Virus record (IMG/VR): IMGVR_UViG_3300036985_007703
Span: 1-64,000 of that record
Reading direction: 5' to 3' (one strand)
From: a virus
Length of the DNA stretch: 64,000 nt
Shown: piece after piece, positions 6,726 to 54,733 of the stretch
How the letters are laid out: each line of letters begins with the position of its first letter
Numbering within the stretch: position 1 is the first letter of the stretch
Notes under the pieces: generated by a model
What the model saw: only the letters and a program-made list of their open reading frames with translations
Told to the model about the DNA's origin: nothing
Databases searched by the model: none
Translations under genes and position numbers: made by a program

Positions 6726-6736
6726 CCCCCTGCCTG

Positions 6737-6809
6737 TAGACCAGCACGGAATCGAACCGTGGACACGCGGATTAAGAATCCGCTGCTCTACCATCTGAGC
6801 TACTGGTCC
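6737..6809 (-). tRNA. tRNA-Lys (anticodon CTT), CCA not encoded
   Basis: GGACCAG TA GCTC AGATGGTA GAGC A GCGGA TTCTTAA TCCGC GTGTC CACGG TTCGATT CCGTG CTGGTCT A folds into a full cloverleaf. Confidence 0.93.
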
Positions 6810-6902
6810 AAACCGCGAGCCCAGTGCTACAGCGCTCGCTGCTCTACGGCTGTCGCCGGCCTCCACCAGGGCACCCGTTTACGGTACGGGTCCGGGACCG
6901 CG

Positions 6903-7249
6903 TGGACTCGCCGAGAATCGAACTCGGGTCCGCCCGCGCCGCCAACGAAATCTCGTCCACAGGCTTGGCGATGTCGATGCGCCGGCCGCGGCCCATCGCG
7001 AGCCCACGTCCGCTGTGCCCCCGTGCCTTAGGCGACCCTACCTGGGGCCTCTCCGGTCGCCGCACCCTGCTTGATGACGCCGCATCGGCCCCTCCAGGGG
7101 GAAGGGACCGGGCGACGGGTCACGGCTCACGCCGCGGCCTGATACTCCTGCTGTTTGGCATTCGTATGGTGGCGCCTCTGTGCCCTGTGAGCGCCATCAG
7201 GGGCCTGCGACCTCGCCCTTGGCCCGAGCGTCGAAACCATGTCGAGCCC
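6903..7249 (-). ncRNA. ssrA: tmRNA, tag peptide (A)AKQQEYQAAA*
   Basis: 5' GGGCTCGACATGGTTTCGAC and 3' GGACCCGAGTTCGATTCTCGGCGAGTCCA; acceptor stem has the G3-U wobble (Ala identity); tag ORF at 7159-7127 ends AAA*; 347 nt. Confidence 0.92.
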
Positions 7250-7278
7250 TCGTTCCCTGCGCACGCGCGTGCGCAGCC

Positions 7279-7335
7279 AAAAAAGCGCGGGACGGCCGAC
7301 CGAGGTTGGGAGTGAGAACAATCGGCCGCCCCGCA
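7279..7335 (-). terminator. probable intrinsic terminator after ssb
   Basis: GCGGGGCGGCCGA...TCGGCCGTCCCGC stem followed by GCTTTTTT on the minus strand; the loop is long. Confidence 0.5.
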
Positions 7336-7345
7336 CAAACACCGC

Positions 7346-8104
7346 CTAGTAGCTCGCGCCCTTGGGCTCATCCCAGGGCTCTTTCCGCTTCGTCGAGGAC
7401 CGCGCCGCCAGCCGCTGGAGCTGGTCGAACGTGGGGATCGGGAACTCCTTGTAGTAGTCGTAGGGCCCCAGCTCCTTGAGGTGGTCCGGGTTGGCCCCGA
7501 GTTCGAGGAGGTAGCGCTTCACGTCCTGCAGCGCGATGCGCTCCACGAACTGGTGGTCCGAGCCCACGGTCTCGCTCAGCGAGCCTTCGCGGCTCACGTC
7601 CCACACGGTCCCCGCGAGGTCCCCGCCGTTGGCGATGGCCCGCTTGCGGAGGCGCGTCAGCACGCCGGGCTTGTCCTCCGACCCCCTCTTGGCCCCGTAG
7701 AGCTTGCGCATGAACTGGTAGCTCTTAGTGGGGTCCTTGACGCCCTTGTAGGCCGACAAGAGGGCCTTGCCGTTCTCGTACACGACCATGCCCAGGTCGA
7801 TCACCGTGAACCAGCCGAAGAAGAGCGGCCAGTTCTTGATCTCGCACAGGGGGCACCCCCGCCCGCCCGCGTTGTTGGGCAGCGCGTTCTTCTCCAGGCA
7901 GAGGTAGAGGTCATGCTCGTTGTTGATCTTCCAGGTGTCGTGGAAGTACGCGGGGAACGGCATCCCGTCGAGGAAGAGGATCCTGCGCGTCTCCCCGTCC
8001 TTCATGTAGAACTTGCGAAGGCCGAGGTCGCTAGCGTTCTTGTCCTTGCTGTAGTCCTCGGTGCTATCCCAGCCCGCTTGGGCCCATCCCGTCTGCTGTG
8101 TCAT
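7346..8104 (-). CDS. single-stranded DNA-binding protein (gp32-like, Zn-binding)
   Basis: KFYMKDGETRRILFLD...H...C...GCPLC, then WDVSREG; lies beside primase and helicase. Confidence 0.65.
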   Translation of the reverse strand: MTQQTGWAQAGWDSTEDYSKDKNASDLGLRKFYMKDGETRRILFLDGMPFPAYFHDTWKINNEHDLYLCLEKNALPNNAGGRGCPLCEIKNWPLFFGWFTVIDLGMVVYENGKALLSAYKGVKDPTKSYQFMRKLYGAKRGSEDKPGVLTRLRKRAIANGGDLAGTVWDVSREGSLSETVGSDHQFVERIALQDVKRYLLELGANPDHLKELGPYDYYKEFPIPTFDQLQRLAARSSTKRKEPWDEPKGASY

Positions 8105-16914: not shown

Positions 16915-16985
16915 AGGGGCCTCCGTTGCGCATGCGCATGCGCAGATCAGATTAGGGGCGCCGTCGTTATTCCATGGCCGCCGGT

Positions 16986-18576: not shown

Positions 18577-18757
18577 CTCGGTCCTCCTTCTCTGGGCCCC
18601 GCACCGCCTGCTCTCATGGGGGGGCGTCGGGCCGGCCGCGCATGCGCATGCGCCTTCCGGGAGGACGCCCCGCGGCTCCGCCGGGGCTATGTTCGTTGGG
18701 GTCTAGGCTATCGGCCCCCGTGGGCCCGTGTCAAATTCGTTTCGTTTCGCCACACGA

Positions 18758-27023: not shown

Positions 27024-27810
27024 CGTTCAGCCTCCAGCCTCTGCGCGGGGCGCCCCGCGCGCAACCTGCCACCGTTCAGCGCGGGATCCCGATCCCGTGG
27101 GCCCGCGCATACGCTAGCGCCTTGGCGCCGATGGCCAGCACCGCATCGAGCTGCGCCCGGCTCATGGGGTTCGTCTGCCCGCAGCAGCGCCCCAGGAGGG
27201 CCCCCTGGGCCTCCACCATGGTCCGCCGCTCCTCGGGGGTCAGGGCCCCCGCATATCCCCGCACGGCCTTGTAGACCGCGAGGGCGTCCTTCCAGCTCAG
27301 CACGCGGTCCATCAGCCCCCCGCGCGCCCCGCGCAGAAGGTCACGCGCAGGTGCTCGACCGTGCGCTCGTAGGCGCAGTCCGGGGCGTGCCCCTCGATCT
27401 GGTGGCAGGAGCACGGCGCCACCTCGGCCCAATGCACCCGCATGTAGTCGAGGAAGGCCTGCGCCAGGTGCAGCACCTCGTCCTGCGCATGCGCATGCGC
27501 AGCGCGCGTATCCCGATCGATGTGCGCCATCGTCGCCCATCCCCCCGTTCCCCGCGGCAGGCCCATCAGACGCCCTCCGGGACGACGATCAGGGCCGCCG
27601 CGGCCCGCGCGATCATCTCGCGCCCCGCCTCGACCTCGGCCACGAGCACCACCGTCTTATCCCCGTGATCCAGCGCGAGGAGGCCCGCCCACACGGGGCC
27701 GCCCCGCATCACGCACGCGCGGCGCCCCGTGAACTTGCCCTCGTGCTCCAGCATCCGTGTCCCCTGCGCATCCATGGTGCCTCCCTTTCCGGCCCCTGGG
27801 GCCTGCAGAG

Positions 27811-31845: not shown

Positions 31846-32082
31846 AGCTCCTTGCGCACGCGCGTGCGCAGCCGTCAGTTGAGCCTGATCGCCGGGGTCG
31901 ACGTTACCACGGCCCCCGGCGGCACCGCCACGATCGTCAACTGGATCACGTTGTTGGGCGTATCGAGGTCCAGCCGCGCCCCATCGTAGGGGGGCACCGC
32001 GACCCCGCGCGCCTTCAGCCCGTCCGTCAACAGCTCCACGGCCTCCTGCAGGGAGAGGCGGTAGACCCGCGCTTCGCGCACC

Positions 32083-41810: not shown

Positions 41811-41847
41811 GGCGCCGCGCACGCGCATGCGCAAGCAGAATGGAGGG

Positions 41848-42705
41848 TTAGTTGCGCTTGCGCCGCTGCCCCTTGGCCGGAGCCGCGTCCCGCGCCGGCG
41901 TCCGCCCCACGCGAGGCTCCTGCCAGGGGTGCCGCCAGACCGCCACCGCCACGCGCCCCTCGTCGCCGTCCGCCAGGTCCAGGGCCCGCACCCACGCCGG
42001 GGTCTCCTCCAACGCGCGGACCACGTCCGCGTCCGAGGCCTCCGCGCCCTCTGCCCCCCACAGGGCATGGGGGCGCCCCGTGTCGGGGTCCTCGTACCGC
42101 CACTCCGCGAGCCGCGCGCGCCACTCGTCCGGCGGCACGCCCTCCTCAGGGATCGGCTCCCAGGCGAACCAGGCCGTCAGGGGCACGCTGTCGCCCCCCG
42201 GCTGGGGGCGCCGCGCCCAGGACCGCCGCCCCTTATTGGGGAAGCCCGCGCTCGTCGCCTCGACCAGGCTCCGCAGCCGCTGGCTCAGCGACACGGCCTC
42301 GCCCTTCAGCGTCCAGGGCCCCTCGAACTCCGCGCGCCTCTTGCCCACGAGCTTGTAGTACTTCGCGTCCTTCGCGGCGTGGTTCCGGTCCTTCTGGTGC
42401 TTCTGGATGTACTTGCGCCCGCGCGGCGTCTGCTGGTGCGGCTTCGTCCGCTTGAAGTACGGCAACTTGGGCCCGTGGTGCAACGCCGCGACCCCGCGCG
42501 CGATGGCGTGCGCCGTCGGGGCGTCCGAGCGCCGCGGGGGCCCCTTCTTCCGCAGCCCCCCCACGATCGCCACCACGGCATGCCGCGTGTAGGGGTCCGC
42601 CGCCCGCGGCTTCTGCACCTTGATCGCGGCGCCCCCGTGGGGCGTCTTCCCCTCGACCAGGGCCCGCAGGCGCGCGCTGAGCCGCTCCCCGCGCGTCAGC
42701 AGCAC
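41848..42705 (-). CDS. putative internal head protein (two leader motifs)
   Basis: LSARLRALVEG and LSQRLRSLVEA; very basic. Confidence 0.55.
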   Translation of the reverse strand: MLLTRGERLSARLRALVEGKTPHGGAAIKVQKPRAADPYTRHAVVAIVGGLRKKGPPRRSDAPTAHAIARGVAALHHGPKLPYFKRTKPHQQTPRGRKYIQKHQKDRNHAAKDAKYYKLVGKRRAEFEGPWTLKGEAVSLSQRLRSLVEATSAGFPNKGRRSWARRPQPGGDSVPLTAWFAWEPIPEEGVPPDEWRARLAEWRYEDPDTGRPHALWGAEGAEASDADVVRALEETPAWVRALDLADGDEGRVAVAVWRHPWQEPRVGRTPARDAAPAKGQRRKRN

Positions 42706-42709
42706 GGCG

Positions 42710-43033
42710 TCAGATGCTCCACGCATCCCAGGCCGCCTCAAACTGCTTGTGCGCCTCGGCCACGGCTGCCTGCGCCTCGAAGATCTCCCGCGCGCCCTTC
42801 GCCATGTCCGTGGCCTGGTATTCCCTAATCGGCACGTCGATCTCCCAGTGCATCAGCGGGCGCACCCCCGCCATCTCCTTGCGCTTCTTCTCCAGGCCCT
42901 TCACCGCCTGGGTCAGGGCCTCCGCCGCCTTGAGGACGGGGTCCACCTTGGGGATCGGCTTGCGGGTCTTCAGGATCTCCGCCGGGATGGTCACCTCGTC
43001 CAACTGCCGGATCAGCGCCTTCATGCTCCTCAT
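42710..43033 (-). CDS. putative internal head protein
   Basis: MRSMKALIRQLDEV. Confidence 0.55.
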   Translation of the reverse strand: MRSMKALIRQLDEVTIPAEILKTRKPIPKVDPVLKAAEALTQAVKGLEKKRKEMAGVRPLMHWEIDVPIREYQATDMAKGAREIFEAQAAVAEAHKQFEAAWDAWSI

Positions 43034-43359
43034 ACGGGTCTCCCCATCGCGAGTTCCCAGGCGTTCATCACGCCCCACTTGGCCTCGTCAATAGCGATCA
43101 GTTGCTCCTGGTACGCCGACATCGCCTGGCGGTCCGCCCGGTCCAGCCCCTTGACCAGCTTGGCCAGGGCCGCGACCTCCTTGTCGAACCGCGCCACCGC
43201 CGCATGCACGCCCTTGAGCACGGCCTCCGTCGGCACGTGCATCTGCTGGTTCCGCTGGTCGATCTCGCGCCGCCGCGCCTCCTTCGACTGGAAGTCCCCC
43301 GGCGCCACCTCGCGCCGCCGCTGGACGCCCTCGATCACCGCGCTCATCCGCTGTGCCAT
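43030..43359 (-). CDS. putative internal head protein
   Basis: MAQRMSAVIEG. Confidence 0.55.
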   Translation of the reverse strand: MAQRMSAVIEGVQRRREVAPGDFQSKEARRREIDQRNQQMHVPTEAVLKGVHAAVARFDKEVAALAKLVKGLDRADRQAMSAYQEQLIAIDEAKWGVMNAWELAMGRPV

Positions 43360-43361
43360 CG

Positions 43362-43706
43362 TCACTCCTCCGTATCGGGGTGGGCCGCGCCGTGCGCGAA
43401 CCCCACCTGGAACAGCAGCCCGTCGACCGCCTTGTTCAGCGCGATCACCGCCGCCTGCATGCGGGGGTCCGTCGCCGGGCGGTCCAGCCCCTGGACCAGC
43501 TCCGCTACGCGCCCCGCCGCCTGCTGCAGCGCCGCCGCCTTGGCCCCCGCGGCCTGGCGCGCGTTGGCCACGCCCCGCGCATCCTGCGGGGAGCGCCACG
43601 CCACGTTCATCCCGCTGGTGACCTGCCCCCAGTTGGGGGGCACGCCCTCGGCCAGCAGCCCCGAGGCGACCAGACTCGCCTCGATCATCGTGCGCATGCG
43701 CGTCAT
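43362..43706 (-). CDS. putative internal head protein
   Basis: MTRMRTMIEA. Confidence 0.55.
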   Translation of the reverse strand: MTRMRTMIEASLVASGLLAEGVPPNWGQVTSGMNVAWRSPQDARGVANARQAAGAKAAALQQAAGRVAELVQGLDRPATDPRMQAAVIALNKAVDGLLFQVGFAHGAAHPDTEE

Positions 43707-43715
43707 GGCGCCTCC

Positions 43716-44105
43716 TTACTCGGTCGCACCCCTGAATTTCCATTCCTTCTTGGCGAAGTCGTACCACGCCTGTAGCAGCGTGATCCCATTGCTTCCGCCA
43801 GCCCTGTGCTCCCACGAAATATCCATGGGGATCTGCATCATGTTGTGCTGGGCGCTGTAGTGCCCCGCGCCCTTCACGACCACCGTGCTCATCACGGCCT
43901 CGAAAACCCCCGCCTTGCCCACTAGCTCGTCGCTCTTCACGATCAAACGCCAGGGTCCAGCAGACGACAACTTGGCCGTCAACTTCACCGGCACCTTGAG
44001 GACCTTGGAGACTTGTTGCTCCAGCGACTTGATGTCGATCTCGTCCTCGCTCGGTCCTTCAGCGGCCTCGTGCAACCGCCCGATCAGGGTGCTCATCTTC
44101 TGCAT
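43716..44105 (-). CDS. putative internal head protein
   Basis: MQKMSTLIGRLHEA. Confidence 0.6.
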   Translation of the reverse strand: MQKMSTLIGRLHEAAEGPSEDEIDIKSLEQQVSKVLKVPVKLTAKLSSAGPWRLIVKSDELVGKAGVFEAVMSTVVVKGAGHYSAQHNMMQIPMDISWEHRAGGSNGITLLQAWYDFAKKEWKFRGATE

Positions 44106-44173
44106 GGTATCTCCATTCTCAGGGGCGCCACCGGCGCCGCGTTTGCTACTTCGCGAGCCCCGCGCGCGCCGCC

Positions 44174-44695
44174 CTACGGCAGCACGTAAATGGTGCTGAC
44201 CCCGCGCTTGCGCGCCTCCGCCTGGGCCGCCTTGACCGCCTCGGCATAGAGCATGTTGCCGCCGGGGGCGAACGCCTCGTCCGACCGCATGTCCGGGTCC
44301 TGCGTGCCGATGCCGAACATCCAGTTGCCGCGCCCCCGCGGGGCCGCCCCGTGGTTGAAGCGGTACAGGTTGGTCTCCACGTTGACCTTGCCGGTCGCCT
44401 CTTCCAAGCGCCGGATCAGGCTCTGCATCTTCGTCATGGTGTCCTCACCCTTGATGGCCCGCTCGTAGGCCGCATCTTTGCCCTTGGCCGCCGCGTCGCG
44501 CCCATGCGCCCGGATGGCCTTCCGGCCCTTGGCCGTCTTGTTCTTCGTGCCGGGCTCGTAGTAGCCGGCCTTGTTCCCGCCCGCCTTGCAGATCGCGAAA
44601 GCCGCGCCCTTGTCCTTGCCGCCCTTGGTGACGCCCGCCACGCAGTGCCGCATGAAGGCGTCCGCCCGCTCGATCAACGCTTGCATCGACTCCAT
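44174..44695 (-). CDS. putative internal head protein (tandem, internal start at 44437)
   Basis: MESMQALIERA and MTKMQSLIRRLEEA. Confidence 0.6.
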   Translation of the reverse strand: MESMQALIERADAFMRHCVAGVTKGGKDKGAAFAICKAGGNKAGYYEPGTKNKTAKGRKAIRAHGRDAAAKGKDAAYERAIKGEDTMTKMQSLIRRLEEATGKVNVETNLYRFNHGAAPRGRGNWMFGIGTQDPDMRSDEAFAPGGNMLYAEAVKAAQAEARKRGVSTIYVLP

Positions 44696-44705
44696 GACCG
44701 CCTCC

Positions 44706-45077
44706 TCACACGCTCGCCAGGATCCGCACGGGGACCGGGCTCGTCGGCGCCGTGGTCCCCGGCGTGCCGGGGCTCGTCACGCAGCAGCACGTGAGCCCCA
44801 CCCCGAACGCCAGGCCCTCCGGCACCGCGAACGACCGCTTGACCGCCGCGGGGACCATCAGCACGAGGTGCGGGTCCACGGTCCCCGGCGCCGCGCTCAC
44901 CGCGTTGTAGCACTTCACGTAGCTGGGGGCCCCCGCGTTGCCCGTGTTGTCGGCCTCCACGAGGTACAGCGTGCAGGGCGCCCCGAAGAGGTTGTTCTGC
45001 GCCGTCGCGCCGAGGGCCGTGTCCACCGCGAGGCGGGTCGCGACCGGGTTCACCTGGGTACTGACTGCCATCGTCAT
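44706..45077 (-). CDS. small beta-rich virion protein, possibly decoration
   Basis: YVKCYN...PGT..P...L.VPA...GLAF..GL; lacks the leader motif. Confidence 0.45.
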   Translation of the reverse strand: MTMAVSTQVNPVATRLAVDTALGATAQNNLFGAPCTLYLVEADNTGNAGAPSYVKCYNAVSAAPGTVDPHLVLMVPAAVKRSFAVPEGLAFGVGLTCCCVTSPGTPGTTAPTSPVPVRILASV

Positions 45078-45122
45078 CGTCGTACTCCTCGCGCGATCAC
45101 GTGATCGCGGCGTGTGTGCGTC

Positions 45123-45407
45123 TCAACTCGCTACCCACCCATATTGCCCCGACCAACGACACCGGCGTAGAAAATCGCGCGCCGCCGCCTGCGCCGCACG
45201 CCGGCTCGGGAACCAGTCCTCGCCCCCCACGTCCCGCAGGGGGTGGTCGGGGGCCTCGGCCAGCTGGCCCGAGAGGAGGTAGTACCACCCGTCCCCGCGC
45301 GCGCTGCCCTCGGCCTTGCGCACCACCACGGTGATGCCCTTGAGGGCCGCCGGATCGCGCCCTCCCGCGGCCGCCGCCCCCTCCAAGCGCTGCAGCAGCT
45401 CACGCAT
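45123..45407 (-). CDS. putative internal head protein
   Basis: MRELLQRLEGA. Confidence 0.55.
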   Translation of the reverse strand: MRELLQRLEGAAAAGGRDPAALKGITVVVRKAEGSARGDGWYYLLSGQLAEAPDHPLRDVGGEDWFPSRRAAQAAARDFLRRCRWSGQYGWVAS

Positions 45408-45675
45408 GCCCAGCGCCAAATTTCTGCTCTACCCAGCGCTTGACATCATCAAAATAGGCCCACCCCTTCATCTCTTGCTGTTGCCCCTGCGCGTCGGTAA
45501 ATGAGCCCGATACCTGGGGGCCCGACGAGGAGGCCCACCGCGAGAACGCCACCTTCCCCAGCTGCTCCTCGCCCCGCAGGATGACCCAGGCGTAGCCCTC
45601 GCGGCGCAGCGTCAGCCCGTGCTTGAGGCGCAGCACCTTCGCGGTCTCTTCCAATCGCCCCAACAGCGTTCGCAT
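45400..45675 (-). CDS. putative internal head protein
   Basis: MRTLLGRLEET. Confidence 0.55.
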   Translation of the reverse strand: MRTLLGRLEETAKVLRLKHGLTLRREGYAWVILRGEEQLGKVAFSRWASSSGPQVSGSFTDAQGQQQEMKGWAYFDDVKRWVEQKFGAGHA

Positions 45676-45707
45676 CTCGCTCCTCCTGCGCATGCGCATG
45701 CGCAGCG

Positions 45708-47066
45708 CTACCTTACCACCGTGCCCCCCGCCCTGTCCGCAAACTCGCGCAGGAGGGCCCCGAGGGCCCCGCCCGCCGCCTCGCTGGCCGCCGCCCGCCC
45801 CAGGGCCAGCGCCTCGAAGCGCGCCCGCTGCGCCCCCGTCAGCTCCACGCCCTCATAGCGCCCCAGCACGTACGCCGCGAAGACCTCCGCGAACTCCTCC
45901 ACCGCGGACTCCGCCCCGTAGGCCGTCGGCGCCGGCACGTAGGCCGCCTGCGGGCCCTCGCGCTCCTGGTCCGCCTTGCTGCGCGGGTCGAACCACGCCG
46001 CGAAGCGCGCCCGCGCCCCCGCCCGCATGTGCTTGAACCAATAGCGGTGCCCCAGCTCGTGGACCACGACCTCCGTCACGGTCTTCGCACTCCAGGTCAA
46101 CTGCGGATTCAATACCACGTCATCCAAGCTGCTGGCGTAGTGGCCGCCCGACCGAAACCGCTCCCCCGATTTCGCCGTTGTACCCATCACAGCGCTGGTC
46201 GGCGGCAGCACGTAGATGCGCCCTTTCCAGACCACGCCAAAGCCCTTTTGACGCAGCGCCGCCTCCGCGCGCTGCACCCCCGCCAACACCGCCCGCGCCG
46301 TCCGGTTGCTCACCTGCGCATCCGGCACGCTGTCCTCGGGCGCCCGCGCGAGCTTGCGCAGATCCACCGCCGCCCCCGGATCGGTCAGCACTTTGACCCC
46401 GCGAATCTCGTACTCCAGCGGGGGGACCTCGGCCATGCGCTTCACGTCGATCGCCGCTACGGCCTCCAGCGTGCCGAAGACCCGGAATGCCGCCTGGACC
46501 TCGCGGTCGACCTCGGTCGCCGCCTGCTCGGCATTCTCTACATCGGCCTGCCAAGCGTTCAGGGTCCGCCCGCGCCCATACGTCTTTGACGAAGCCCCAC
46601 CCCACATCGCCTGCGCGCGCAGATCCTCGGGGGTCTGCGGGTAGTCCCGCTGAAACCAGGTCGCCTCTGCGTTCTTGAACGCTGCCAGGCGCGCCCGCGC
46701 GGCCTCTAGGGCCGGAAGCACCTTCATCTGCGGGGCCTCCGCCAACTTGCGCCCCGCCACCTTTGCCGGCAACTTGAGCACCGGCGATCCCATGCCCACC
46801 ACGTCAATGTGCTGCACTACCGACCTCGCAAGATCCTGTATCGTCGATAGGCCCGGCGCTCGCACCAGCGCGTCGACCAGCGCCGCGATCCGCCGCTCGC
46901 CCTCCGCGAACCACGCGAGGACCTTATCCCGATCCTTGGGCTCGCGGATCTGCGCGATCCGCGCCGCGTCCTTCACCCACTGCGCCCACCACTTGCGGAC
47001 CCCCGCCAGCCACGCCTTCGAGCCCGGCGCGGGGGCCGCCTCCAGCAGGGTCAGCAGCTCACGCAC
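45708..47066 (-). CDS. gluzincin-like metalloprotease with leader motif
   Basis: MRELLTLLEAA; GGHY...VVVHELGH...PTAYG...EEFAEVF. Confidence 0.7.
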   Translation of the reverse strand: MRELLTLLEAAPAPGSKAWLAGVRKWWAQWVKDAARIAQIREPKDRDKVLAWFAEGERRIAALVDALVRAPGLSTIQDLARSVVQHIDVVGMGSPVLKLPAKVAGRKLAEAPQMKVLPALEAARARLAAFKNAEATWFQRDYPQTPEDLRAQAMWGGASSKTYGRGRTLNAWQADVENAEQAATEVDREVQAAFRVFGTLEAVAAIDVKRMAEVPPLEYEIRGVKVLTDPGAAVDLRKLARAPEDSVPDAQVSNRTARAVLAGVQRAEAALRQKGFGVVWKGRIYVLPPTSAVMGTTAKSGERFRSGGHYASSLDDVVLNPQLTWSAKTVTEVVVHELGHRYWFKHMRAGARARFAAWFDPRSKADQEREGPQAAYVPAPTAYGAESAVEEFAEVFAAYVLGRYEGVELTGAQRARFEALALGRAAASEAAGGALGALLREFADRAGGTVVR

Positions 47067-47427
47067 GGCGCACCTTCGCAGCCAGCGTGCCGATGGCCCC
47101 CGCCACGCGGTCGTGCCACGCGGCCCCCGCCCGGTCGCCCCTCGCCCGCAGCGCCACGGCGATCCCGTCCGCCTGGTTCGAGAGGTCCGTCAGGGCCGCG
47201 CTCAGGGCCGCCGCGGCCCCCGGCGCCACCGCGAGGAAGTCCCCGCCCCGCCCCGTGGCCTCCCACACGAGGCGCGCCGCCGCGGCCTCCCCCGCGTCCA
47301 GCCCGTGCCCCTCGGGGTCGTCCGCCAGCTCCGCGAGGTCCGTCTCGAAGAACGAGGCCACCATCTCGGGGATCTTGACCCGGACAGCCCGCGCCTCGGC
47401 CCCCTCGATCAGCGCCCGCATCGTCAT
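47059..47427 (-). CDS. putative internal head protein
   Basis: MTMRALIEGA. Confidence 0.55.
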   Translation of the reverse strand: MTMRALIEGAEARAVRVKIPEMVASFFETDLAELADDPEGHGLDAGEAAAARLVWEATGRGGDFLAVAPGAAAALSAALTDLSNQADGIAVALRARGDRAGAAWHDRVAGAIGTLAAKVRRA

Positions 47428-47768
47428 GACGCCACCAGCTCGATGCGCGTGGCGAAGCCCTCCCCGAAGTAGTCCTCCAGCCAGCTCCCCACCCGCATCC
47501 CCTTCTCCCCGTAGAGCCCCGGCAGCCCCAGCGCCCGCGCCGCCGAGATGGTCACCTGCAGGGATACCCCCCGCTGGTCGACCTTGGGCACCTGGCGCCG
47601 CACCTCGCCCCAGGCCCGCACGCGGACCACGCGCACGCGCCCCGCCGGGCGCTCGTACGCGATCTTGACCTCCACGGGCTCCTCCAGCCGCGCGCGCTTG
47701 GGCGCCGGCATGCGGAGGCTCCCATCCTTGTTGGCCACGGCCTCGATCAGCGCCCGCATCTTCCGCAT
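47424..47768 (-). CDS. putative internal head protein
   Basis: MRKMRALIEA. Confidence 0.55.
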   Translation of the reverse strand: MRKMRALIEAVANKDGSLRMPAPKRARLEEPVEVKIAYERPAGRVRVVRVRAWGEVRRQVPKVDQRGVSLQVTISAARALGLPGLYGEKGMRVGSWLEDYFGEGFATRIELVAS

Positions 47769-47779
47769 GGGGGCCTCCA

Positions 47780-48025
47780 TCACTGTTCCTCGTTGCTGAT
47801 CAAGAACTCCCGGAACACCTCCGACATCTCCTCGCAGGCATCCAACAGCGCCTCCAAGGCCTTCTCCCCCTGGACCTGCGCCACGATCTGTTTGGTCAGG
47901 GGCCCCTTGAACTGGCCCTCGATGGCGTAGGTCTTGTCTATCATCGTCCGCGCGTGGCGCAGGAGCCCGGAGGACGGCCCACCCTTCATGATCCCCTCGA
48001 TCAACGTGCTCATCGTATGCATCAC
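47780..48025 (-). CDS. putative internal head protein
   Basis: MHTMSTLIEG. Confidence 0.55.
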   Translation of the reverse strand: MMHTMSTLIEGIMKGGPSSGLLRHARTMIDKTYAIEGQFKGPLTKQIVAQVQGEKALEALLDACEEMSEVFREFLISNEEQ

Positions 48026-48037
48026 ACGCCTCCTCGC

Positions 48038-48706
48038 CTAGCCCCGCGCGCTGATCTGTGTCGCCACGTCCCGGCGCACGTAGTTGACCAGGAACTTCGC
48101 CGCGCGGTCCGCGTCCATCATGCCCAACGACACCTTCATGACCTTGGTGTCATCCTGCTTCGAGCCGTCCCACTTGTTCACCACGAAGGCGCTCGTCCCG
48201 CGGTCCATGTCGATCGTGACCTCCAGGTCGTAGACCATATCTTCCCCGTTCCGCGCCACGACCAGGACCGGCCAGTCGAACCCCTGCGACTCCACCGATG
48301 CCGTCAGGCCGCCGGCCCCGCTCATCATGGCCGAGCCCTTCAGCTGCGCGTTGACCGCGAGGGCCACCTCCTTGAAGAAGGCGATCAGCGCGCCCTCCAG
48401 GATCTTGCCCAGGTTGTTCGCGGAGCCGCTCAGCGCCTCGGCGAGGCCCGCGCCCTCCTGCAGCCGCTCGATCAGGGACGACATGGAGTCCCCCTCCACG
48501 CCCTCGACCTTGAGCTTGAGCTTAGGCAGCCACTCCTCGTCGTCGACTTGGTTGCGGATCTGCTGGAGCAGCCCCGCATCCTTGAACCCCTTGTAGTTGC
48601 CCGACATCCAGGCGTCGTACAGCTTGGCCTTCCAGCCCTTGCCCTTCTCTTTCGCCCACGCCTTGAGGGCCGCCATCTGCTCTGCGTTCGGTGCGTACTT
48701 TGCCAT
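48038..48706 (-). CDS. two-domain protein with an internal leader (start at 48484)
   Basis: Internal MSSLIERLQEG preceded by GGAGGGGG. Confidence 0.6.
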   Translation of the reverse strand: MAKYAPNAEQMAALKAWAKEKGKGWKAKLYDAWMSGNYKGFKDAGLLQQIRNQVDDEEWLPKLKLKVEGVEGDSMSSLIERLQEGAGLAEALSGSANNLGKILEGALIAFFKEVALAVNAQLKGSAMMSGAGGLTASVESQGFDWPVLVVARNGEDMVYDLEVTIDMDRGTSAFVVNKWDGSKQDDTKVMKVSLGMMDADRAAKFLVNYVRRDVATQISARG

Positions 48707-48762
48707 GATTCCCGCTCCTATGGGCCGTGGGCCCCGCTAGACGCCCACCGGCGCCGTTGATC

Positions 48763-49134
48763 TCACCTTGCCGCCGCCGCGAGGCTCGATCGCCACGCCT
48801 CGGCGTTGTTGACCGCGTTACGGATGCGCCGCGTCAACCCCTCGTCCTGCGGCGCATAGAACCGCCGCTTGGCCATGTCGTCCGCCAGGGCCAGGCTCCA
48901 GCTCGGCACGTCGTACCGCTTCTTGTACAGGAACACCTCGCCGTCCCACCCCTCGGGCTGCGCGAAGGCCGCCTGGTAGGAGCCCTGGCTCGGCTTGCCC
49001 TGGTCCCCCATCACCCACGCCTGCCAGGTGATCGCCACGGGGCGCCGCGCCTTCTCCACGATCACACGGACCACGCCCGCGCCCTCGATAAGGGCCCGTA
49101 GGCGCGCGCTCAGGGGCATCATGCGTGCTCGCAT
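48763..49134 (-). CDS. putative internal head protein
   Basis: MMPLSARLRALIEGA. Confidence 0.55.
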   Translation of the reverse strand: MRARMMPLSARLRALIEGAGVVRVIVEKARRPVAITWQAWVMGDQGKPSQGSYQAAFAQPEGWDGEVFLYKKRYDVPSWSLALADDMAKRRFYAPQDEGLTRRIRNAVNNAEAWRSSLAAAAR

Positions 49135-49222
49135 CCGCGTCTCTCCGTTGCATACTGGGGCGCGAGGCTCCGTGGCCAGACCACCTGCCTCCCCTCCAGC
49201 GTAACCACCGCCCGCGCGCCTG

Positions 49223-49609
49223 TCACCGCACGGCCTTGTACGAGGCTTCCCTGGCCTTCGCGATGGCCTCGCGCTCCGCGTAGCCATCCGCGACGAACTT
49301 ATCCCGCTGCTGCCCCACGAACTTCTCCCAGCGCTTCACCGCCGCCGCCGCCGCCGCCGCGTCCTTGTAGACCCTGCTCTCCAGCATGCTCACCCACGTG
49401 ACCACATCGTGGTAGTCCACGCGCCACGCGGTGCCCGCGTTGTCATCCTGGATGATCCGCACCGGGAGTTCGTACTTACCCGCCTTGCCGAGCTGCATGG
49501 TCCGCCCGTAGGCCATCCGCTTGCCGTCCGGGCTCGGGTAGGCCGTCCACCCCTTGGGGGTCGTCCCCGCCTCGGCCGCCTCTAACATCGCGCGCATCGT
49601 GCCCATCAC
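49223..49609 (-). CDS. putative internal head protein
   Basis: MGTMRAMLEAAEA. Confidence 0.55.
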   Translation of the reverse strand: MMGTMRAMLEAAEAGTTPKGWTAYPSPDGKRMAYGRTMQLGKAGKYELPVRIIQDDNAGTAWRVDYHDVVTWVSMLESRVYKDAAAAAAAVKRWEKFVGQQRDKFVADGYAEREAIAKAREASYKAVR

Positions 49610-51294
49610 TTGCCTCCCTTAAGTACCTTGATAAAACGCGTGAGGTCCGTCCCCGTCTTGAACAGCGCCTCCTCCCCGGCCCGCAGCTTCGTCCACATGC
49701 GCAAGAAATCCCCATCGATCATGGCGATCGAGGTCACAGCATACGGGGCCTGCTTCTGCGAGTTCCGCATGTCGTCGGCCATGCTCTTCACGTCCACCGA
49801 GACGCCATCCAAGATCTTCATGGCCTCGTTGACCTTCTTGTAGGCCGCCTCCGTCCGCTTCTGAAGGTCCTCGGCATCCGCGAGGAAGAGGTTTTGCTCC
49901 TCCACGAGGCCGCGCCCCTTAGGGGCCCGCCCCTCCGTCGTCCCCTTGGGGCCGATGTCGATCACGCGCCCCATGCGCTGCTGCACCACCAGAAAGCGGT
50001 CCCCCTCGACCTCCTTGGCCACCGCCAGGAGGTAGTTCTGGTTCAGCGCCCGCTTGCCGTCCGCCGCCGCCATCAGGGCATCGTTCTTCTTCGCCGACTG
50101 CCCGCTCGTCGTCGCGCTCGGGCTCGCCAGCAGCACGGCCTCCGCGGCCTGCGGGACCCCGCTGATCAGCTGCCAACCCTTGCGCCCCTTCCAGAGCGTC
50201 ACGAAGGCCTGGGAGTCCGCCGCCGGCCCGTGGTCCTTATTCACAAAGACCAACCACTCCTTGCTCGTGCCTTCCGCCCACGGGGCCATCCCCGCCCGGC
50301 GGAAGGCCGCCTTGGCCGCCCCCTCCAGCGTCCGCTCGCTGGGCGCGCGGTCCCCCGCCGCCTCGCCCATGGCCCCCGCCTTCTTGCGCGCGATCGTCCC
50401 GCACAAGGCCTTGGGATCGCTCACGCCCCCCTTGGCCTTCATGTACTTCACGCAGTTCCCAAACTTCTCCCCCTTGCGCCCCTTGAAGGCCCCCGTCTTC
50501 GGGTTGATGTACTTCGCGCTGAGCTGCTGCTGCTTCGACGCCTTCTTCTTCTTGGCCGCCGCCTCCATCAACGCCGCGACCCAGTGCCCCACGGCCTCGC
50601 TGGCCTCCTCGGCGTCCATCTCCTCGTCGTCGTCCTCGGGCCCCTCGCAGTCCTCGCAGGCCGCCCCGTCGCTCTCATCCCGCGCCTCGCAGGCCCGCGG
50701 CTCGCCCGTCACCGGGCACACACCCTCGTCGCCCATGTCCTCGCCCTCGTCCCCACCGTCCTCCTCGTCCTCGTCGTCCTCCACCGCCTCAAACTTCTTC
50801 GCCGCCGGCGCGAAGGCCTGCGTCGTGCTGAAGTACCGCTGCAGGATGAGATCCGCCATCTCGCGCCCGCTGATCCGCACCATGAGCAGGTACCAGTAGA
50901 TCGGCATGTTCTCGGGCTGCGCCCGCATGAGCCGCGCCGCCTTCGGGGCCACCTTCGCGATGTTGCGCAGCGCCAGCTTGAACGCCTCGCGCGGCCGGTT
51001 CGCCAGCACGTCCTGCGCGTCCGCCATGTTGTCCGCCCCCAGCAGCGCGGGGAGGTCCTCGCGCGGGATCGCCTTCAGGAGCGCGCGCTGGTTGTCAAAG
51101 ATCATGTTGGAGAGGTCCAGCTTCCCCTGGTCGTCCTTCCACGCCGCCGGCGCGTCCTTCTCCCACATCTTGAGGATCTTGCTGCTCACCTTGAAGGCCC
51201 CCGGCCGCACCGGGGTGTCCTCGCCCGCCATCGCCATCGCCGCGGGGCCCGTCTGGCGCTCCATCAATGATCCCAACCGCTCGCTCAACCGCAT
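49606..51294 (-). CDS. multi-segment putative head core or polyprotein
   Basis: MRLSERLGSLME; internal ALMEA, TLEG, LVEE; acidic and Lys-rich tracts. Confidence 0.55.
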   Translation of the reverse strand: MRLSERLGSLMERQTGPAAMAMAGEDTPVRPGAFKVSSKILKMWEKDAPAAWKDDQGKLDLSNMIFDNQRALLKAIPREDLPALLGADNMADAQDVLANRPREAFKLALRNIAKVAPKAARLMRAQPENMPIYWYLLMVRISGREMADLILQRYFSTTQAFAPAAKKFEAVEDDEDEEDGGDEGEDMGDEGVCPVTGEPRACEARDESDGAACEDCEGPEDDDEEMDAEEASEAVGHWVAALMEAAAKKKKASKQQQLSAKYINPKTGAFKGRKGEKFGNCVKYMKAKGGVSDPKALCGTIARKKAGAMGEAAGDRAPSERTLEGAAKAAFRRAGMAPWAEGTSKEWLVFVNKDHGPAADSQAFVTLWKGRKGWQLISGVPQAAEAVLLASPSATTSGQSAKKNDALMAAADGKRALNQNYLLAVAKEVEGDRFLVVQQRMGRVIDIGPKGTTEGRAPKGRGLVEEQNLFLADAEDLQKRTEAAYKKVNEAMKILDGVSVDVKSMADDMRNSQKQAPYAVTSIAMIDGDFLRMWTKLRAGEEALFKTGTDLTRFIKVLKGGK

Positions 51295-51344
51295 CGCTCG
51301 TCCCTCATTCCCTTGGTTATCGCGCATGCGCATGCGCGGCTCGC

Positions 51345-52124
51345 TCATCTCTCGCCCGGCAGCGCGAAGTCCACCGGCACGCGCGCCGCCCGCAGGCCCG
51401 CCCGCAGCGCCGCGAGGTCCATCCCCGGCAGCGCCGCCGCGTGCTCGTCCACCCAGCGCGCGAACATCGTCCCCACCGCGTACTTGCCCGCGGCCCCCGT
51501 GCGGATCGCCACGTCCCGGCCATCCCACATGCGCAGGCTCACGGCCGGCCAGCTGTAGGACAGCACGAAGTCCTTCCCCCGCAGCTCCTCGCTGCTATGC
51601 GCCAGCCCCACGGGCCGCCGCTGGCTCTCCTCAAAGGGCGTCCGCAGCGTGGCCGCCCCGTCGATCAGGAACCGCTCGGGGCCCTGGAGCCCGCGGTTCG
51701 CGGCCTCCGCCGCCGCCTGCACCCGCGCCCAGACGCGCGGCCACCCCGCCTCGCCGTAGGCCGCCCGCAGCGCCGCCCGGAAGCCCTCCACCGCCGCCTC
51801 GACCATGGCCCCCGCGCGCCCCGCCTCGACCCGCTGGGCATCGCGCGCCGCCCACTGCGCCTTCGTGGGCTTGCGCCCCCGCGGCGGGGCCCCCATGGGC
51901 ACCCGCGGCGTCGCCGGCACGCTCACGCGCCCCACGTGCCCCAGCCCCGTGAGGTCCACCACGAGCACGTCCACGAGGTCGCGCGGATACCGCGTGCCCT
52001 GCGCGCAGAACACCCGCACGTCGTCGACCGCCCAGCCCAGCTCGGCGTTCCACACGCTCTCCACGCCCGCGTTGTACCGGGTCCCCCGCTCGATCGCTTC
52101 CAGCAGTTGTCGCATCGCAGCCAC
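51345..52124 (-). CDS. putative internal head protein
   Basis: MAAMRQLLEAIERG; TTGGCA-17nt-TAGAGT promoter at 52173-52201. Confidence 0.55.
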   Translation of the reverse strand: MAAMRQLLEAIERGTRYNAGVESVWNAELGWAVDDVRVFCAQGTRYPRDLVDVLVVDLTGLGHVGRVSVPATPRVPMGAPPRGRKPTKAQWAARDAQRVEAGRAGAMVEAAVEGFRAALRAAYGEAGWPRVWARVQAAAEAANRGLQGPERFLIDGAATLRTPFEESQRRPVGLAHSSEELRGKDFVLSYSWPAVSLRMWDGRDVAIRTGAAGKYAVGTMFARWVDEHAAALPGMDLAALRAGLRAARVPVDFALPGER

Positions 52125-52321
52125 GTCTACCCTCCGGCAAGCGCGCGCCCCCTCTCGTCTGCTCGCTGATCGACTCTACCGACCCGCCCGCCCCCTGCCA
52201 AGAAATCCCCACGCCCCGCTCGCGCTTTACCCCGCCGCGAGCCACGCGAGCACCGCCAGGACGAGCCCCGCCACGGCCAGCCCGATGAGCGCCGCGAGGG
52301 CCACGTCGCGCCCGCCCGGCC

Positions 52322-52636
52322 CTACGCCCACGCCGGCCCCACTGGGGGCTGCGAGATCGGCCCCTCGGCCGCCCCCGTCGCGCGCAGGGCCTCCGTGAGG
52401 GCCGCCACGCACAGCGCCACGTGCCGCCGCGTCGCCGCCGCGTCCCGCCCCAGGCCCCCGGCCTCCGCGAGCTTCGCCAGCAGCGCCGCCGCATTGCGCA
52501 CCGCCGCCCAGGCGTCCGCCGCCTCCGCGGGGTCCCCGCCCCGCTTGCCGTCCAGCAGCAGCCCCAGCGCCGCGCGCATCAGCGCGTTCGCCTCGGCCTC
52601 CGCCAGCGCCTCCATCCTCTCGATGAGCTGTTTCAT
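52322..52636 (-). CDS. putative internal head protein
   Basis: MKQLIERMEALAEA. Confidence 0.55.
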   Translation of the reverse strand: MKQLIERMEALAEAEANALMRAALGLLLDGKRGGDPAEAADAWAAVRNAAALLAKLAEAGGLGRDAAATRRHVALCVAALTEALRATGAAEGPISQPPVGPAWA

Positions 52637-52947
52637 GGCCCCAGCCTACCGCCGCGCGGGCCGCCCCGCAAGCTCGTCCCCCGCCCCCGATGGCACGAGC
52701 CCCGCCGCCTCCGCCTTCTCCTGCAGCGCCTTGAGCGCGAACGCAAACAGCTCCGCCGGGGGATGCCCATAGGCCCGCCCCAGGGCCCGCGCGCGCTCCC
52801 AGGTGTCCCGCGTCACGAGCATCATCACCAGGTCGTCGTGCTGGAGGTCGGCGTCCGGCCGCGGGTCGAGCTTGCCGTCCTCGGCCCCCGCGATCTCCCG
52901 CTGCGGCCCCCCGCGCGGCCCCCCGCGCGCCTGTGCCCGCATCACCA

Positions 52948-53706
52948 TCAGATGGCCGTCTGGTCGAGCTTGCCCACGCTGTGATCCGCCCCGTTCCAGG
53001 TCTTATCGTCGAGCTTGTACGGCGCCGCCCCGCTCCCCACCGCGTCCTTCTGCCGCCCCACGTAGGTCACGCCCTTCATGGGCTGCTGCACCACCTGCCG
53101 GAACGTCAGGGCCACCGTAGCGAGCCGCGGCACGCCGTTCGAGAAACAGAGGCTGTACGTCACGTCGCAGCCCGTCATCACCGCGAAGATCGCGTCCCCG
53201 CCCTTCTCATTCCAGTTGAGCCCCGGCGCGTGCAGGATCGCGATCGGCGGGGGGTACGCCTCCACGTGCGTCTCCCCCTGCATGTACAGGGGGTAGCAGA
53301 ACGCCCGCAGGTAGCGGATGGCCCCCGCGACGTCCGAGTTCCACTTCGGCGAGTCCGACCCCTTCGTCATCCCAAAGGGGTCGAAGAGCTTCTCCATCAC
53401 CGTGCGGTCGCCCTCCGGCTTCATGAGCCGGCTCATGGTGACCTCGAACGAGATCGTGCGCCCCCCGTTGCTGCCCCACGTCGCGAGCGCGTGCGAGGCC
53501 CCAGGGATCTCGCTGAAGTTCCAGCCGATCTCGATCGTGTCGGAGATGCTCTCGGGCCAGTACTGGAAGGCACGCTGCGGGATCGCGGGCTTCCCCGCGT
53601 CCGCCGCCAGCGCGTCGATCCCGCACATGCTCATCCACGCCGGCTTCTCGCCGGTGGGCCCGTCCATGATAATGCTGGCGATGCCGCCGAAGACCCCGAG
53701 GGCCAT
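52948..53706 (-). CDS. contractile tail tube / tube-initiator-like protein
   Basis: FQYWPESISD...GRTISFE...PP....V.Y...F.NG.P..ATV.LTF pattern of CIS-tube-like proteins. Confidence 0.6.
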   Translation of the reverse strand: MALGVFGGIASIIMDGPTGEKPAWMSMCGIDALAADAGKPAIPQRAFQYWPESISDTIEIGWNFSEIPGASHALATWGSNGGRTISFEVTMSRLMKPEGDRTVMEKLFDPFGMTKGSDSPKWNSDVAGAIRYLRAFCYPLYMQGETHVEAYPPPIAILHAPGLNWNEKGGDAIFAVMTGCDVTYSLCFSNGVPRLATVALTFRQVVQQPMKGVTYVGRQKDAVGSGAAPYKLDDKTWNGADHSVGKLDQTAI

Positions 53707-53732
53707 GCCTCACCTCCCGCGGCGCCCCGCGC

Positions 53733-54668
53733 TCACTCCGCCGCGTCGATCGTGCGCATCGCGAGGTCCACGGTCCGCGCGCTCACCTTCGCGTTCAGCC
53801 GCTGCAACTGCGAGGGGGGGAGCCCCAGCTCCCGCAGGGGGGCCTTCGCGCGCTGCACGAACCGCTGCGCCTGGTCCACCAGGGGCCCCGCAGCCGCGAG
53901 CACCGCCGCCGCCTCGCCGTCCTCCGTCAGCGCCCCGAGCGCATCGACGAGGAGCGACGCGTAGACGTAGGCGAGCCCCGCCTGCGCCACCTCGTTCGGG
54001 CTGACCACCGTGGCCTCCGCGACCGCCTTGCCCCTGCCGCCCTTGCCCTTGCCCTTGGCCTTGCCCTGGCAGGCCTCGCACCCAGGGCAGTCGCACCCCG
54101 TGCAGCCCTTGCCCTTGGCCGCCTTCTTCTTGCCCTTGCGCCCCTCATCGAGGATCGCCCGGAGCGACGCCAGCAGGGGGTCCGCCCCCTCCATCTCGGG
54201 CTCCGCGTCGGCCGCGCTGCCGTTGGGCTCCTCGGGCTCCAGGTCCTGCGCCCCCTCGTCCTCCAGGTCCGCGCCCTCGTCGCCCTCCGCGATGGCCCAG
54301 CCCACGGCGCCCTCCGCGTCGATCGCCAGCATCGTCTCGTCGTCGAGCATGATCACGGCGCCCGGCGGGTCCTCATCCAGCGCCACCCCCACGACCTCGG
54401 CCGTGGTGTCCGCCGGCACCTCGACGGCCTCGCCGTCCTCCGTGTATGCGATCGTGTCGCTGACCGCGACGAGGGGCACGCCCTCCTCCCAGCCCGCGAA
54501 CAGGTCCTCCTCGGCCATCGCGTTGGGCTCCTCCGGCTCCAGGGCCTCCCCGTCGCCTTCGAACCCCGCGTCCACGGTCTCGCCCTCGGCCTCCGCGCCC
54601 TCGCGCACCACGGCCACGGCCTCGCCCGCCTGCCCCTTCAGGGCCTCCATCAGTGCTCGCATCGTCAT
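53733..54668 (-). CDS. acidic prohead-core/scaffold-like protein with leader motif
   Basis: MTMRALMEA; very Glu-rich; LEPEEPN x2; K/G/C-rich patch. Confidence 0.5.
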   Translation of the reverse strand: MTMRALMEALKGQAGEAVAVVREGAEAEGETVDAGFEGDGEALEPEEPNAMAEEDLFAGWEEGVPLVAVSDTIAYTEDGEAVEVPADTTAEVVGVALDEDPPGAVIMLDDETMLAIDAEGAVGWAIAEGDEGADLEDEGAQDLEPEEPNGSAADAEPEMEGADPLLASLRAILDEGRKGKKKAAKGKGCTGCDCPGCEACQGKAKGKGKGGRGKAVAEATVVSPNEVAQAGLAYVYASLLVDALGALTEDGEAAAVLAAAGPLVDQAQRFVQRAKAPLRELGLPPSQLQRLNAKVSARTVDLAMRTIDAAE

Positions 54669-54733
54669 CGCTCGATCTCCTCGTGCGGCCCGCAGCCGCG
54701 CTATGCCTGCGCATGCGCATGCGCAGCGCCCGC

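Follow-up and report, generated by a model that had tools for sequence, protein, structure and literature searches.

We have analyzed the first 64 kb of IMGVR_UViG_3300036985_007703, a 168,532-bp viral contig from IMG/VR that is estimated to be 83% complete; this stretch (positions 1 to 64,000) is referred to here as the window. A block of genes on the minus strand of the window (positions 41848–54668) encodes proteins that begin with similar short leaders ending in glutamate and continue into unrelated bodies. By analogy with phage T4, whose internal proteins carry a leader that is removed by the prohead protease gp21, we consider it likely that the leader serves as a capsid-targeting propeptide of the T4 type, that a prohead protease removes it, and that the attached proteins (termed cargo here) travel in the phage head. 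They would then probably constitute a large, fast-changing set of proteins that are injected with the DNA.

In the mechanism that we favor, the N-terminal leader would fold into a short amphipathic helix and attach to the scaffolding core during prohead assembly, and this binding would cause the attached protein to be enclosed in the head. A prohead protease of the gp21 family would then act at [L/M/I]-x-E, cutting behind the Glu, where Ala or Gly usually follows, and cleavage would free the mature protein within the head. Core binding, cleavage, presence in the virion, injection and a role against defense systems are all inferred from T4.

The leader family

All 21 leaders quoted in an earlier, sequence-only reading of this DNA were located on the minus strand, between positions 42267 and 54668. 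Most of them open with an ATG or GTG start that is preceded by a Shine-Dalgarno-like site 5–12 nt upstream. Three or four are without a clear site (those starting at 52636, 47427 and 45407, and that at 42705, which has a weak one). Several starts overlap the stop codon of the preceding gene as ATGA or GTGCGTGA. The upstream sites and the stop/start overlaps indicate that the leader starts are real translation starts. The leaders at 48484, 44437 and 42294 are in frame within longer open frames, each with its own ribosome-binding site; they may represent internal starts or modules that have become fused.

The leaders take three forms (a dot marks the end of the leader). The short form is M-x-x-[LM]-[LIMV]-E·[AG], the long form is M-x-x-L-[IL]-x-[RQ]-[LM]-x-E·[AGE], and the third is L-S-x-R-L-R-x-L-[IV]-E·[AG]. 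All share a common ending, which consists of a hydrophobic residue or pair followed by Glu and, usually, by Ala or Gly. About ten leaders are hydrophobic at positions 1, 4, 7 and 8 with Glu at position 9, in the register M1-x-x-[MV]4-x-x-[LM]7-[IL]8-E, and the others are shorter or longer versions of this arrangement. The 30 leaders compared across the genome are 6–18 residues long and all end in Glu, with Leu, Met or Ile at P3 in 28 of them and Ala or Gly at P1′ in 25.

The frequency of the motif was compared with several controls. Two simple regular expressions gave 18 matches in the three minus-strand frames versus one in the plus-strand frames; within the called reading frames, which are a subset, nine matches were observed versus ~0.3 in residue shuffles. 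A leader profile scored 6 bits or more at 25 places on the coding strand, versus a single place on the opposite strand and a single one in reversed sequences. Circularity affects the scores of the members from which the profile was built, but not the other-strand and reversed-sequence controls. When gene starts were picked by ribosome-binding site and codon bias, blind to the motif, a leader-like N-terminus was found in 10 of the 21 genes of the block, compared with none of the 66 genes in positions 1–41847. Thus, the enrichment over early genes and shuffled sequences that the sequence-only reading anticipated is borne out, and the early genes, a tube-like gene (52948–53706) and a β-rich gene (44706–45077) are leaderless, as that reading had noted.

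At least nine additional leader-bearing genes lie outside the block, elsewhere in the genome, and none of these is in the 41-kb replication region. A second cluster is found at 102–107 kb, between baseplate and sheath genes, two leader-bearing genes are located at 143 kb, and another (start 132104) has the portal gene on one side and the protease gene on the other, a place that core genes 67 and 68 occupy in T4. The second cluster also contains a leaderless N-acetylmuramoyl-L-alanine amidase (genome positions 103342–104007; PF01510, E-value of 5e-8).

The bodies that follow the leaders had appeared unrelated by eye, and an all-against-all BLASTP comparison of 30 of them agrees, with no match at E < 0.01. 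The mature cargo has a median length of 115 residues and isoelectric points ranging from 4.1 to 11.2. No Pfam family was matched by the 19 cargo proteins of the window, and a PHROGs search with 11 leader proteins returned nothing significant.

The T4-type head module and its protease

The contig encodes, outside the window, a Gp23 major capsid protein (PF07068, E-value of 3.5e-63), a T4-type portal (PF07230, 3.3e-49) and a Peptidase_S77 prohead protease of the T4 gp21 family (PF03420, 2.2e-17). The head module follows the T4 order of portal, two small core-like genes, protease with a long coiled-coil tail, and capsid protein. Further virion genes on the contig encode a tail sheath, gp25, a baseplate hub OB domain and a T4 baseplate protein. 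The window itself has a G+C content of ~70% and carries nearly all of its genes on the minus strand, with replication and recombination genes (helicases, a primase-helicase and a UvsX-like recombinase) at positions 1–41 kb. The capsid protein is at most ~35% identical to that of any phage deposited in GenBank, so that no cultured close relative was found and the phage belongs to a deep, uncultured T4-like branch. A megablast search of the leader block against GenBank phages gave zero matches. Adjoining the portal gene is a 988-residue reading frame (genome positions 134314–137280) that contains two domains, one for intein splicing and one of the HNH endonuclease type; from its location, this frame probably encodes a large terminase that an intein interrupts.

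The protease domain aligns to the T4 gp21 structure 5JBL with an E-value of 1.5e-7, so that the gp21-type protease on which the sequence-only reading depended is encoded by this genome. At two positions where the crystallized 5JBL chain has Ala, the protease has His and Ser. We take these to be the catalytic His and Ser and, from its sequence, the protease looks active. Cleavage sites are abundant in the coiled-coil region of ~340 residues that forms the C-terminal part of its gene product (genome positions 128695–130299). Whereas T4 has genes 21 and 22, a single gene here appears to encode both protease and scaffold.

The gp21 protease of T4 cleaves after L/I-X-E (PMC9026906), and sites of this kind are distributed unevenly among the proteins considered here. 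The N-termini of the capsid protein and of the protease each carry a stretch of 8–9 residues ending in [IL]-[LT]-E, and, in the capsid protein, residues 33 and 52 mark two further sites, upstream of the part that aligns to mature T4 gp23. The C-terminal tail of the protease and two adjoining small proteins contain 3.3 [LI]-x-E per 100 residues versus 1.4 expected from composition (~2.4-fold). A charged protein of 375 residues is rich in cleavage sites, like the coiled-coil tail of the protease. The cargo bodies contain 0.72 [LI]-x-E per 100 residues versus 0.68 expected. By analogy, enrichment in the core but not in the cargo matches the T4 pattern, in which the core is chopped up and the passengers lose only their tag. 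The occurrence of the site in capsid and scaffold proteins, which the earlier reading proposed to look for, is thus seen at the capsid and protease N-termini and as an enrichment in the scaffold and core proteins. The leaders can also be compared with that of T4, in which targeting depends on residues 4 and 7 and processing on residues 8 and 10 (PMC9026906); the leader sequence of T4 given in PMC8442874 shares the 1-4-7-8 hydrophobic pattern.

One further feature of the protease gene was observed in a close relative of the phage, IMGVR_UViG_3300037042_006682 (161 kb). The gene in that genome (G001:C1:24440–27280) carries an in-frame insert of ~1.1 kb, with the frame open for 947 residues without stops. 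The insert lies between residues 98 and 99 of the query (a translated reading frame starting 26 codons upstream of the gene's start codon) and looks like an intein that the studied genome lacks.

Cargo turnover among relatives

The close relative shares ~93% DNA identity across the flanks of the block, while the center is scrambled. Identity of the cargo ranges from 100% down to 42%. Seven cargo genes of the window have no counterpart anywhere in the 161 kb of the close relative, which has at least one leader-bearing protein of its own. Three more distant relatives (57–62% G+C) were examined in the surroundings of three homologues of the 452-residue cargo described below, using gene calls made by the Joint Genome Institute independently of this analysis. 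In these loci, 7–10 genes per 20 kb open with an almost invariant ten-residue leader, and ~20 of the ~27 leader proteins are without a homologue in the studied genome. The comparison of cargo turnover suggested by the sequence-only reading thus reveals turnover at both distances. In the more distant relatives, the loci L049, L050 and L051 (for example L049:4541–5182) encode a conserved protein of ~213 residues that has a different short N-terminus, ending in [IV]-L-S-E before Ala or Glu; it may represent a further class of substrates for the same protease.

We also lean, with less assurance, toward a broader proposal: that an uncultured T4-like clade loads dozens of proteins per genome into the head by means of one conserved 10-residue tag, with a pan-repertoire of many tens of families, enzymes such as a zincin peptidase included, that are swapped as cassettes. 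If true, this would be by far the largest arsenal of injected effectors known for any phage.

A cargo with a putative zincin-like domain

For the 452-residue cargo encoded at 45708–47066, 13 metagenomic homologues with 46–72% identity were found. The leader is kept directly ahead of a conserved junction in all aligned homologues with a complete N-terminus, while its form switches. Ten homologues all retain an HExxH motif and, downstream of it, an E-E-F-A-E helix without variation. In an AlphaFold2 model of this protein (mean predicted local distance difference test score of 70), the leader stands apart from the fold as a helix predicted with low confidence, as expected of a detachable leader, and is followed by a helical bundle and then by a C-terminal domain. 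A Foldseek search with the whole model returned nothing significant. Residues 213–424 of the model align to zincin peptidases, with Z 9.0 over 168 residues for 1yqy and Z 8.3 over 149 residues for 6fpc. This cargo may plausibly be a metallopeptidase.

Alternative interpretations

Several observations weigh against a T4-type targeting propeptide. Two leaders have their hydrophobic residue at P2 instead of P3, and in a few the Glu is followed by Arg, Thr or Val. Both leader clusters sit among tail- or baseplate-like genes, not among head genes. A relative with 39.5% G+C (G002), whose protease is 37% identical, has no obvious shared leader, as judged by a crude test (7 of 12 identical residues) that is not evidence that G002 lacks one. 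To our knowledge, 30 cargo species far exceeds the content of any characterized T4-like head. Finally, the phage is known from metagenomes alone and was read here from its sequence.

The protease logic would apply equally if the leader proteins were themselves parts of the head core or scaffold, cut like gp22, gp67 and gp68 of T4 and then degraded, expelled or kept as structural filler, with no role in the next host. One leader gene does lie within the head module, several leader proteins are highly charged, and the core proteins of T4 are mostly degraded (PMC9026906). We regard this as unlikely, since the cargo bodies are without the cleavage-site enrichment of real core proteins, gain and loss between phages that are 93% identical is unexpected for structural core parts, and one cargo resembles an enzyme. 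Alternatively, the amphipathic helix could be a handle for a partner outside the head, such as a chaperone or adaptor, the tail or baseplate (loaded as in contractile injection systems) or a membrane. The amphipathic character of the leader, the position of both clusters and the tube-like protein encoded inside the block would all fit a handle of this kind. However, the motif that terminates the leader is exactly the one cleaved by the protease family encoded here, and the leader resembles the N-termini of the capsid protein and of the protease. In addition, the genome is that of a capsid-forming T4-like phage, in which the lumen of the tail is filled by the tape measure. A Sec or Tat secretion signal was considered and rejected; the leaders are too short and too polar, being amphipathic, 6–18 residues long and terminated by Glu, and they are without a hydrophobic core, for which ~10 or more residues behind a basic N-region are expected. 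Such a handle is therefore distinctly unlikely.

A third possibility is that conservation acts on the nucleic acid, as a translation-initiation region, an RNA element or a recombination boundary for the swapping of cassettes, with the peptide as a by-product. Gain and loss of cassettes does adjoin the leaders and an 18-bp palindrome (see below), and modular shuffling at the T-even internal-protein locus, which was discussed by Repoila et al. 1994 as far as the citation in PMC3012670 conveys it, also counts in favor of this explanation. However, among 39 long-form leaders from five phages, the conserved Leu is coded by CTG, TTG, CTC, CTA and TTA, the Arg by six codons and the Glu by both GAG and GAA. 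The leader peptide is kept across genomes of 57–72% G+C. This synonymous freedom and the range of base composition argue strongly against a DNA or RNA element. A scan of viral contigs with the DNA pattern of the leader gave 16 scattered single matches, mostly inside reading frames, and no recognizable relative. Selection acts on the leader peptide, and we consider a nucleic-acid element very improbable. A T4-type capsid-targeting propeptide thus remains the interpretation that we prefer.

Comparison with known systems

The closest parallel is provided by IPI, IPII and IPIII, the internal proteins of T4, and by Alt, all of which carry a leader removed by gp21. Both systems have a T4-type capsid, a portal and a protease of the gp21 family. 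Both use a short N-terminal leader that ends in [L/I]-x-E (10–19 residues in T4 and 6–18 here), and about ten of the copies here are hydrophobic at positions 1, 4, 7 and 8. In both, the mature parts are unrelated, small and often charged, and the loci vary between close relatives (PMC9026906, PMC3012670, PMC12373910). The differences lie in number and arrangement. There are ~30 tagged genes per genome here, compared with three internal proteins together with Alt in T4 and ~10 internal proteins known across the T-even phages. The leaders here have a distinct consensus in three forms and are arranged in long tandem arrays, some of them in frame inside longer frames. Moreover, the protease is fused to a scaffold-like tail, none of the cargo resembles the T4 internal proteins, and the system is known from sequence alone.

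The head and inner-body proteins of phages phiKZ, 201phi2-1 and SPN3US are also comparable, as a gp21-related protease cleaves 8–19 of the head proteins behind a Glu residue, and some of the head proteins enter the host by ejection (PMC5694885, PMC9026906). However, the phiKZ-type motif is S/A-x-E or A-x-E (PMC5694885), and the propeptides are mostly longer than 100 residues and form no uniform leader family. In contrast, the leaders here are short and alike (6–18 residues), with Leu or Met at P3. The cargo of extracellular contractile injection systems, such as the Photorhabdus virulence cassettes, likewise combines a transferable N-terminal tag with unrelated payloads encoded beside tube and baseplate genes. 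Loading signals of contractile injection systems are disordered stretches of ~50 residues that are not known to be cut at a Glu motif, and the particle that they load has no capsid. The studied genome differs in having a full T4-type head and protease, and a contractile-injection cargo signal was set aside for this reason.

The internal proteins of T-even phages are unrelated to one another, have only the packaging leader in common and are encoded at hypervariable loci (PMC3012670, PMC9026906, PMC12373910). On entry, Ip1–3 of T4 block GmrSD restriction enzymes, a different one each (PMC12373910), and the T4 leader has been used to package foreign proteins and deliver them into cells (PMC3012670, PMC9026906, PMC12373910). 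As the packaging-leader principle is long established for these proteins, no new mechanism is described here. The address-label proposal of the sequence-only reading is supported: every computable comparison that might have refuted it came out in its favor, but its novelty was overrated, since both the shared leader and its use as a delivery tag were already established in T-even phages (PMC3012670, PMC9026906, PMC12373910). What is new is the scale, with ~30 tagged proteins per genome or about ten times the number in T4, the distinct leader consensus kept across an uncultured clade, and the tandem and in-frame arrangement of the modules.

Together with the different sets found in relatives, the ~30 tagged proteins would provide a ready-labeled catalogue of candidate effectors for the first minutes of infection, which may act in counter-defense or host takeover. 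The T4 packaging tag would prove to be old and widespread, and the number of tagged proteins suggests that heads of the T4 type may admit a far wider variety of passengers than T4's own head does. A practical limit is that both phage and host are uncultured.

Organization of the leader block

All genes of the block are encoded on the minus strand, and are described here from the 5′ end of that strand. Leader gene 1 (53733–54668) encodes 311 residues with an 8-residue leader; the body is very acidic (isoelectric point of 4.1), with a Cys-rich basic patch, and is 75% identical in the close relative. Two leaderless genes follow. The first (52948–53706, 252 residues) has a weak, sub-threshold match to a contractile-injection tube protein and is conserved in the relative with 39.5% G+C, and the second (52646–52948) encodes 100 residues. 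Leader gene 2 (52322–52636, 104 residues) has a long-form leader of 9 residues. Leader gene 3 (51345–52124, 259 residues) has a GTG start and a leader of the pattern M-x-x-M-x-x-L-L-E·A. Leader gene 4 (49606–51294) encodes 562 residues, with a 12-residue leader and an acidic, Cys-containing middle part; it has an extra internal [L]-M-E·A site near 50571, and its C-terminus differs in the close relative.

Leader gene 5 (49223–49606, 127 residues) has a body that is 48% identical in the close relative, where the counterpart has a different leader-like N-terminus. Leader gene 6 (48763–49134, 123 residues) has a 17-residue leader of the L-S-x-R-L-R-x-L-I-E·G form. In the next open frame (48038–48706, 222 residues), the leader start at 48484 lies 74 codons in and has its own ribosome-binding site; the resulting 148-residue leader module is not present in the close relative. 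The same is true of leader gene 8 (47780–48022, 80 residues), leader gene 9 (47424–47768, 114 residues, basic) and leader gene 10 (47059–47427, 122 residues), the start of which overlaps the previous stop as ATGA. Leader gene 11 (45708–47066) is the 452-residue cargo described above, with its leader, helical bundle and putative C-terminal zincin-like domain containing HExxH and a downstream Glu.

Leader gene 12 (45400–45675, 91 residues), which has a copy of the palindrome just upstream at 45687–45704, and leader gene 13 (45123–45407, 94 residues) are also absent from the close relative. They are followed by the leaderless β-rich gene (44706–45077, 123 residues), which is conserved with ~50% identity in all relatives examined. 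A double-module frame (44174–44695) contains two leader starts, at 44695 and 44437, each with a ribosome-binding site, and each module is ~86 residues long. Leader gene 16 (43716–44105, 129 residues) has a long-form leader of 13 residues. Leader genes 17 (43362–43706) and 18 (43030–43359) encode 114 and 109 residues, respectively, and leader gene 19 (42710–43033, 107 residues) is 69% identical in the close relative. The block ends with a second double-module frame (41848–42705), in which both leaders are of the L-S-x-R-L-R form and both starts, at 42705 and 42294, are GTG. Its first body is very basic (isoelectric point of 11), and its second body is replaced in the close relative.

Other features of the window

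ARAGORN called a tmRNA-like (transfer-messenger RNA-like) gene on the minus strand at 6902–7361, which may be spurious, and a transfer RNA for Lys (CTT) at 6736–6809, which overlaps the start of a helicase reading frame.

The 18-bp palindrome consists of three TGCGCA units and occurs in nine copies in the window, versus 0.01 expected, and in 22 copies in the genome. The copies in the window are located at 54708–54725, 51321–51338, 45687–45704, 41816–41833, 31853–31870, 27484–27501, 18637–18654, 16927–16944 and 7258–7275. Most lie just past a stop codon and immediately ahead of the next ribosome-binding site; inside a reading frame, the palindrome translates as R-M-R-M-R. It is probably a dispersed regulatory or terminator-like element.

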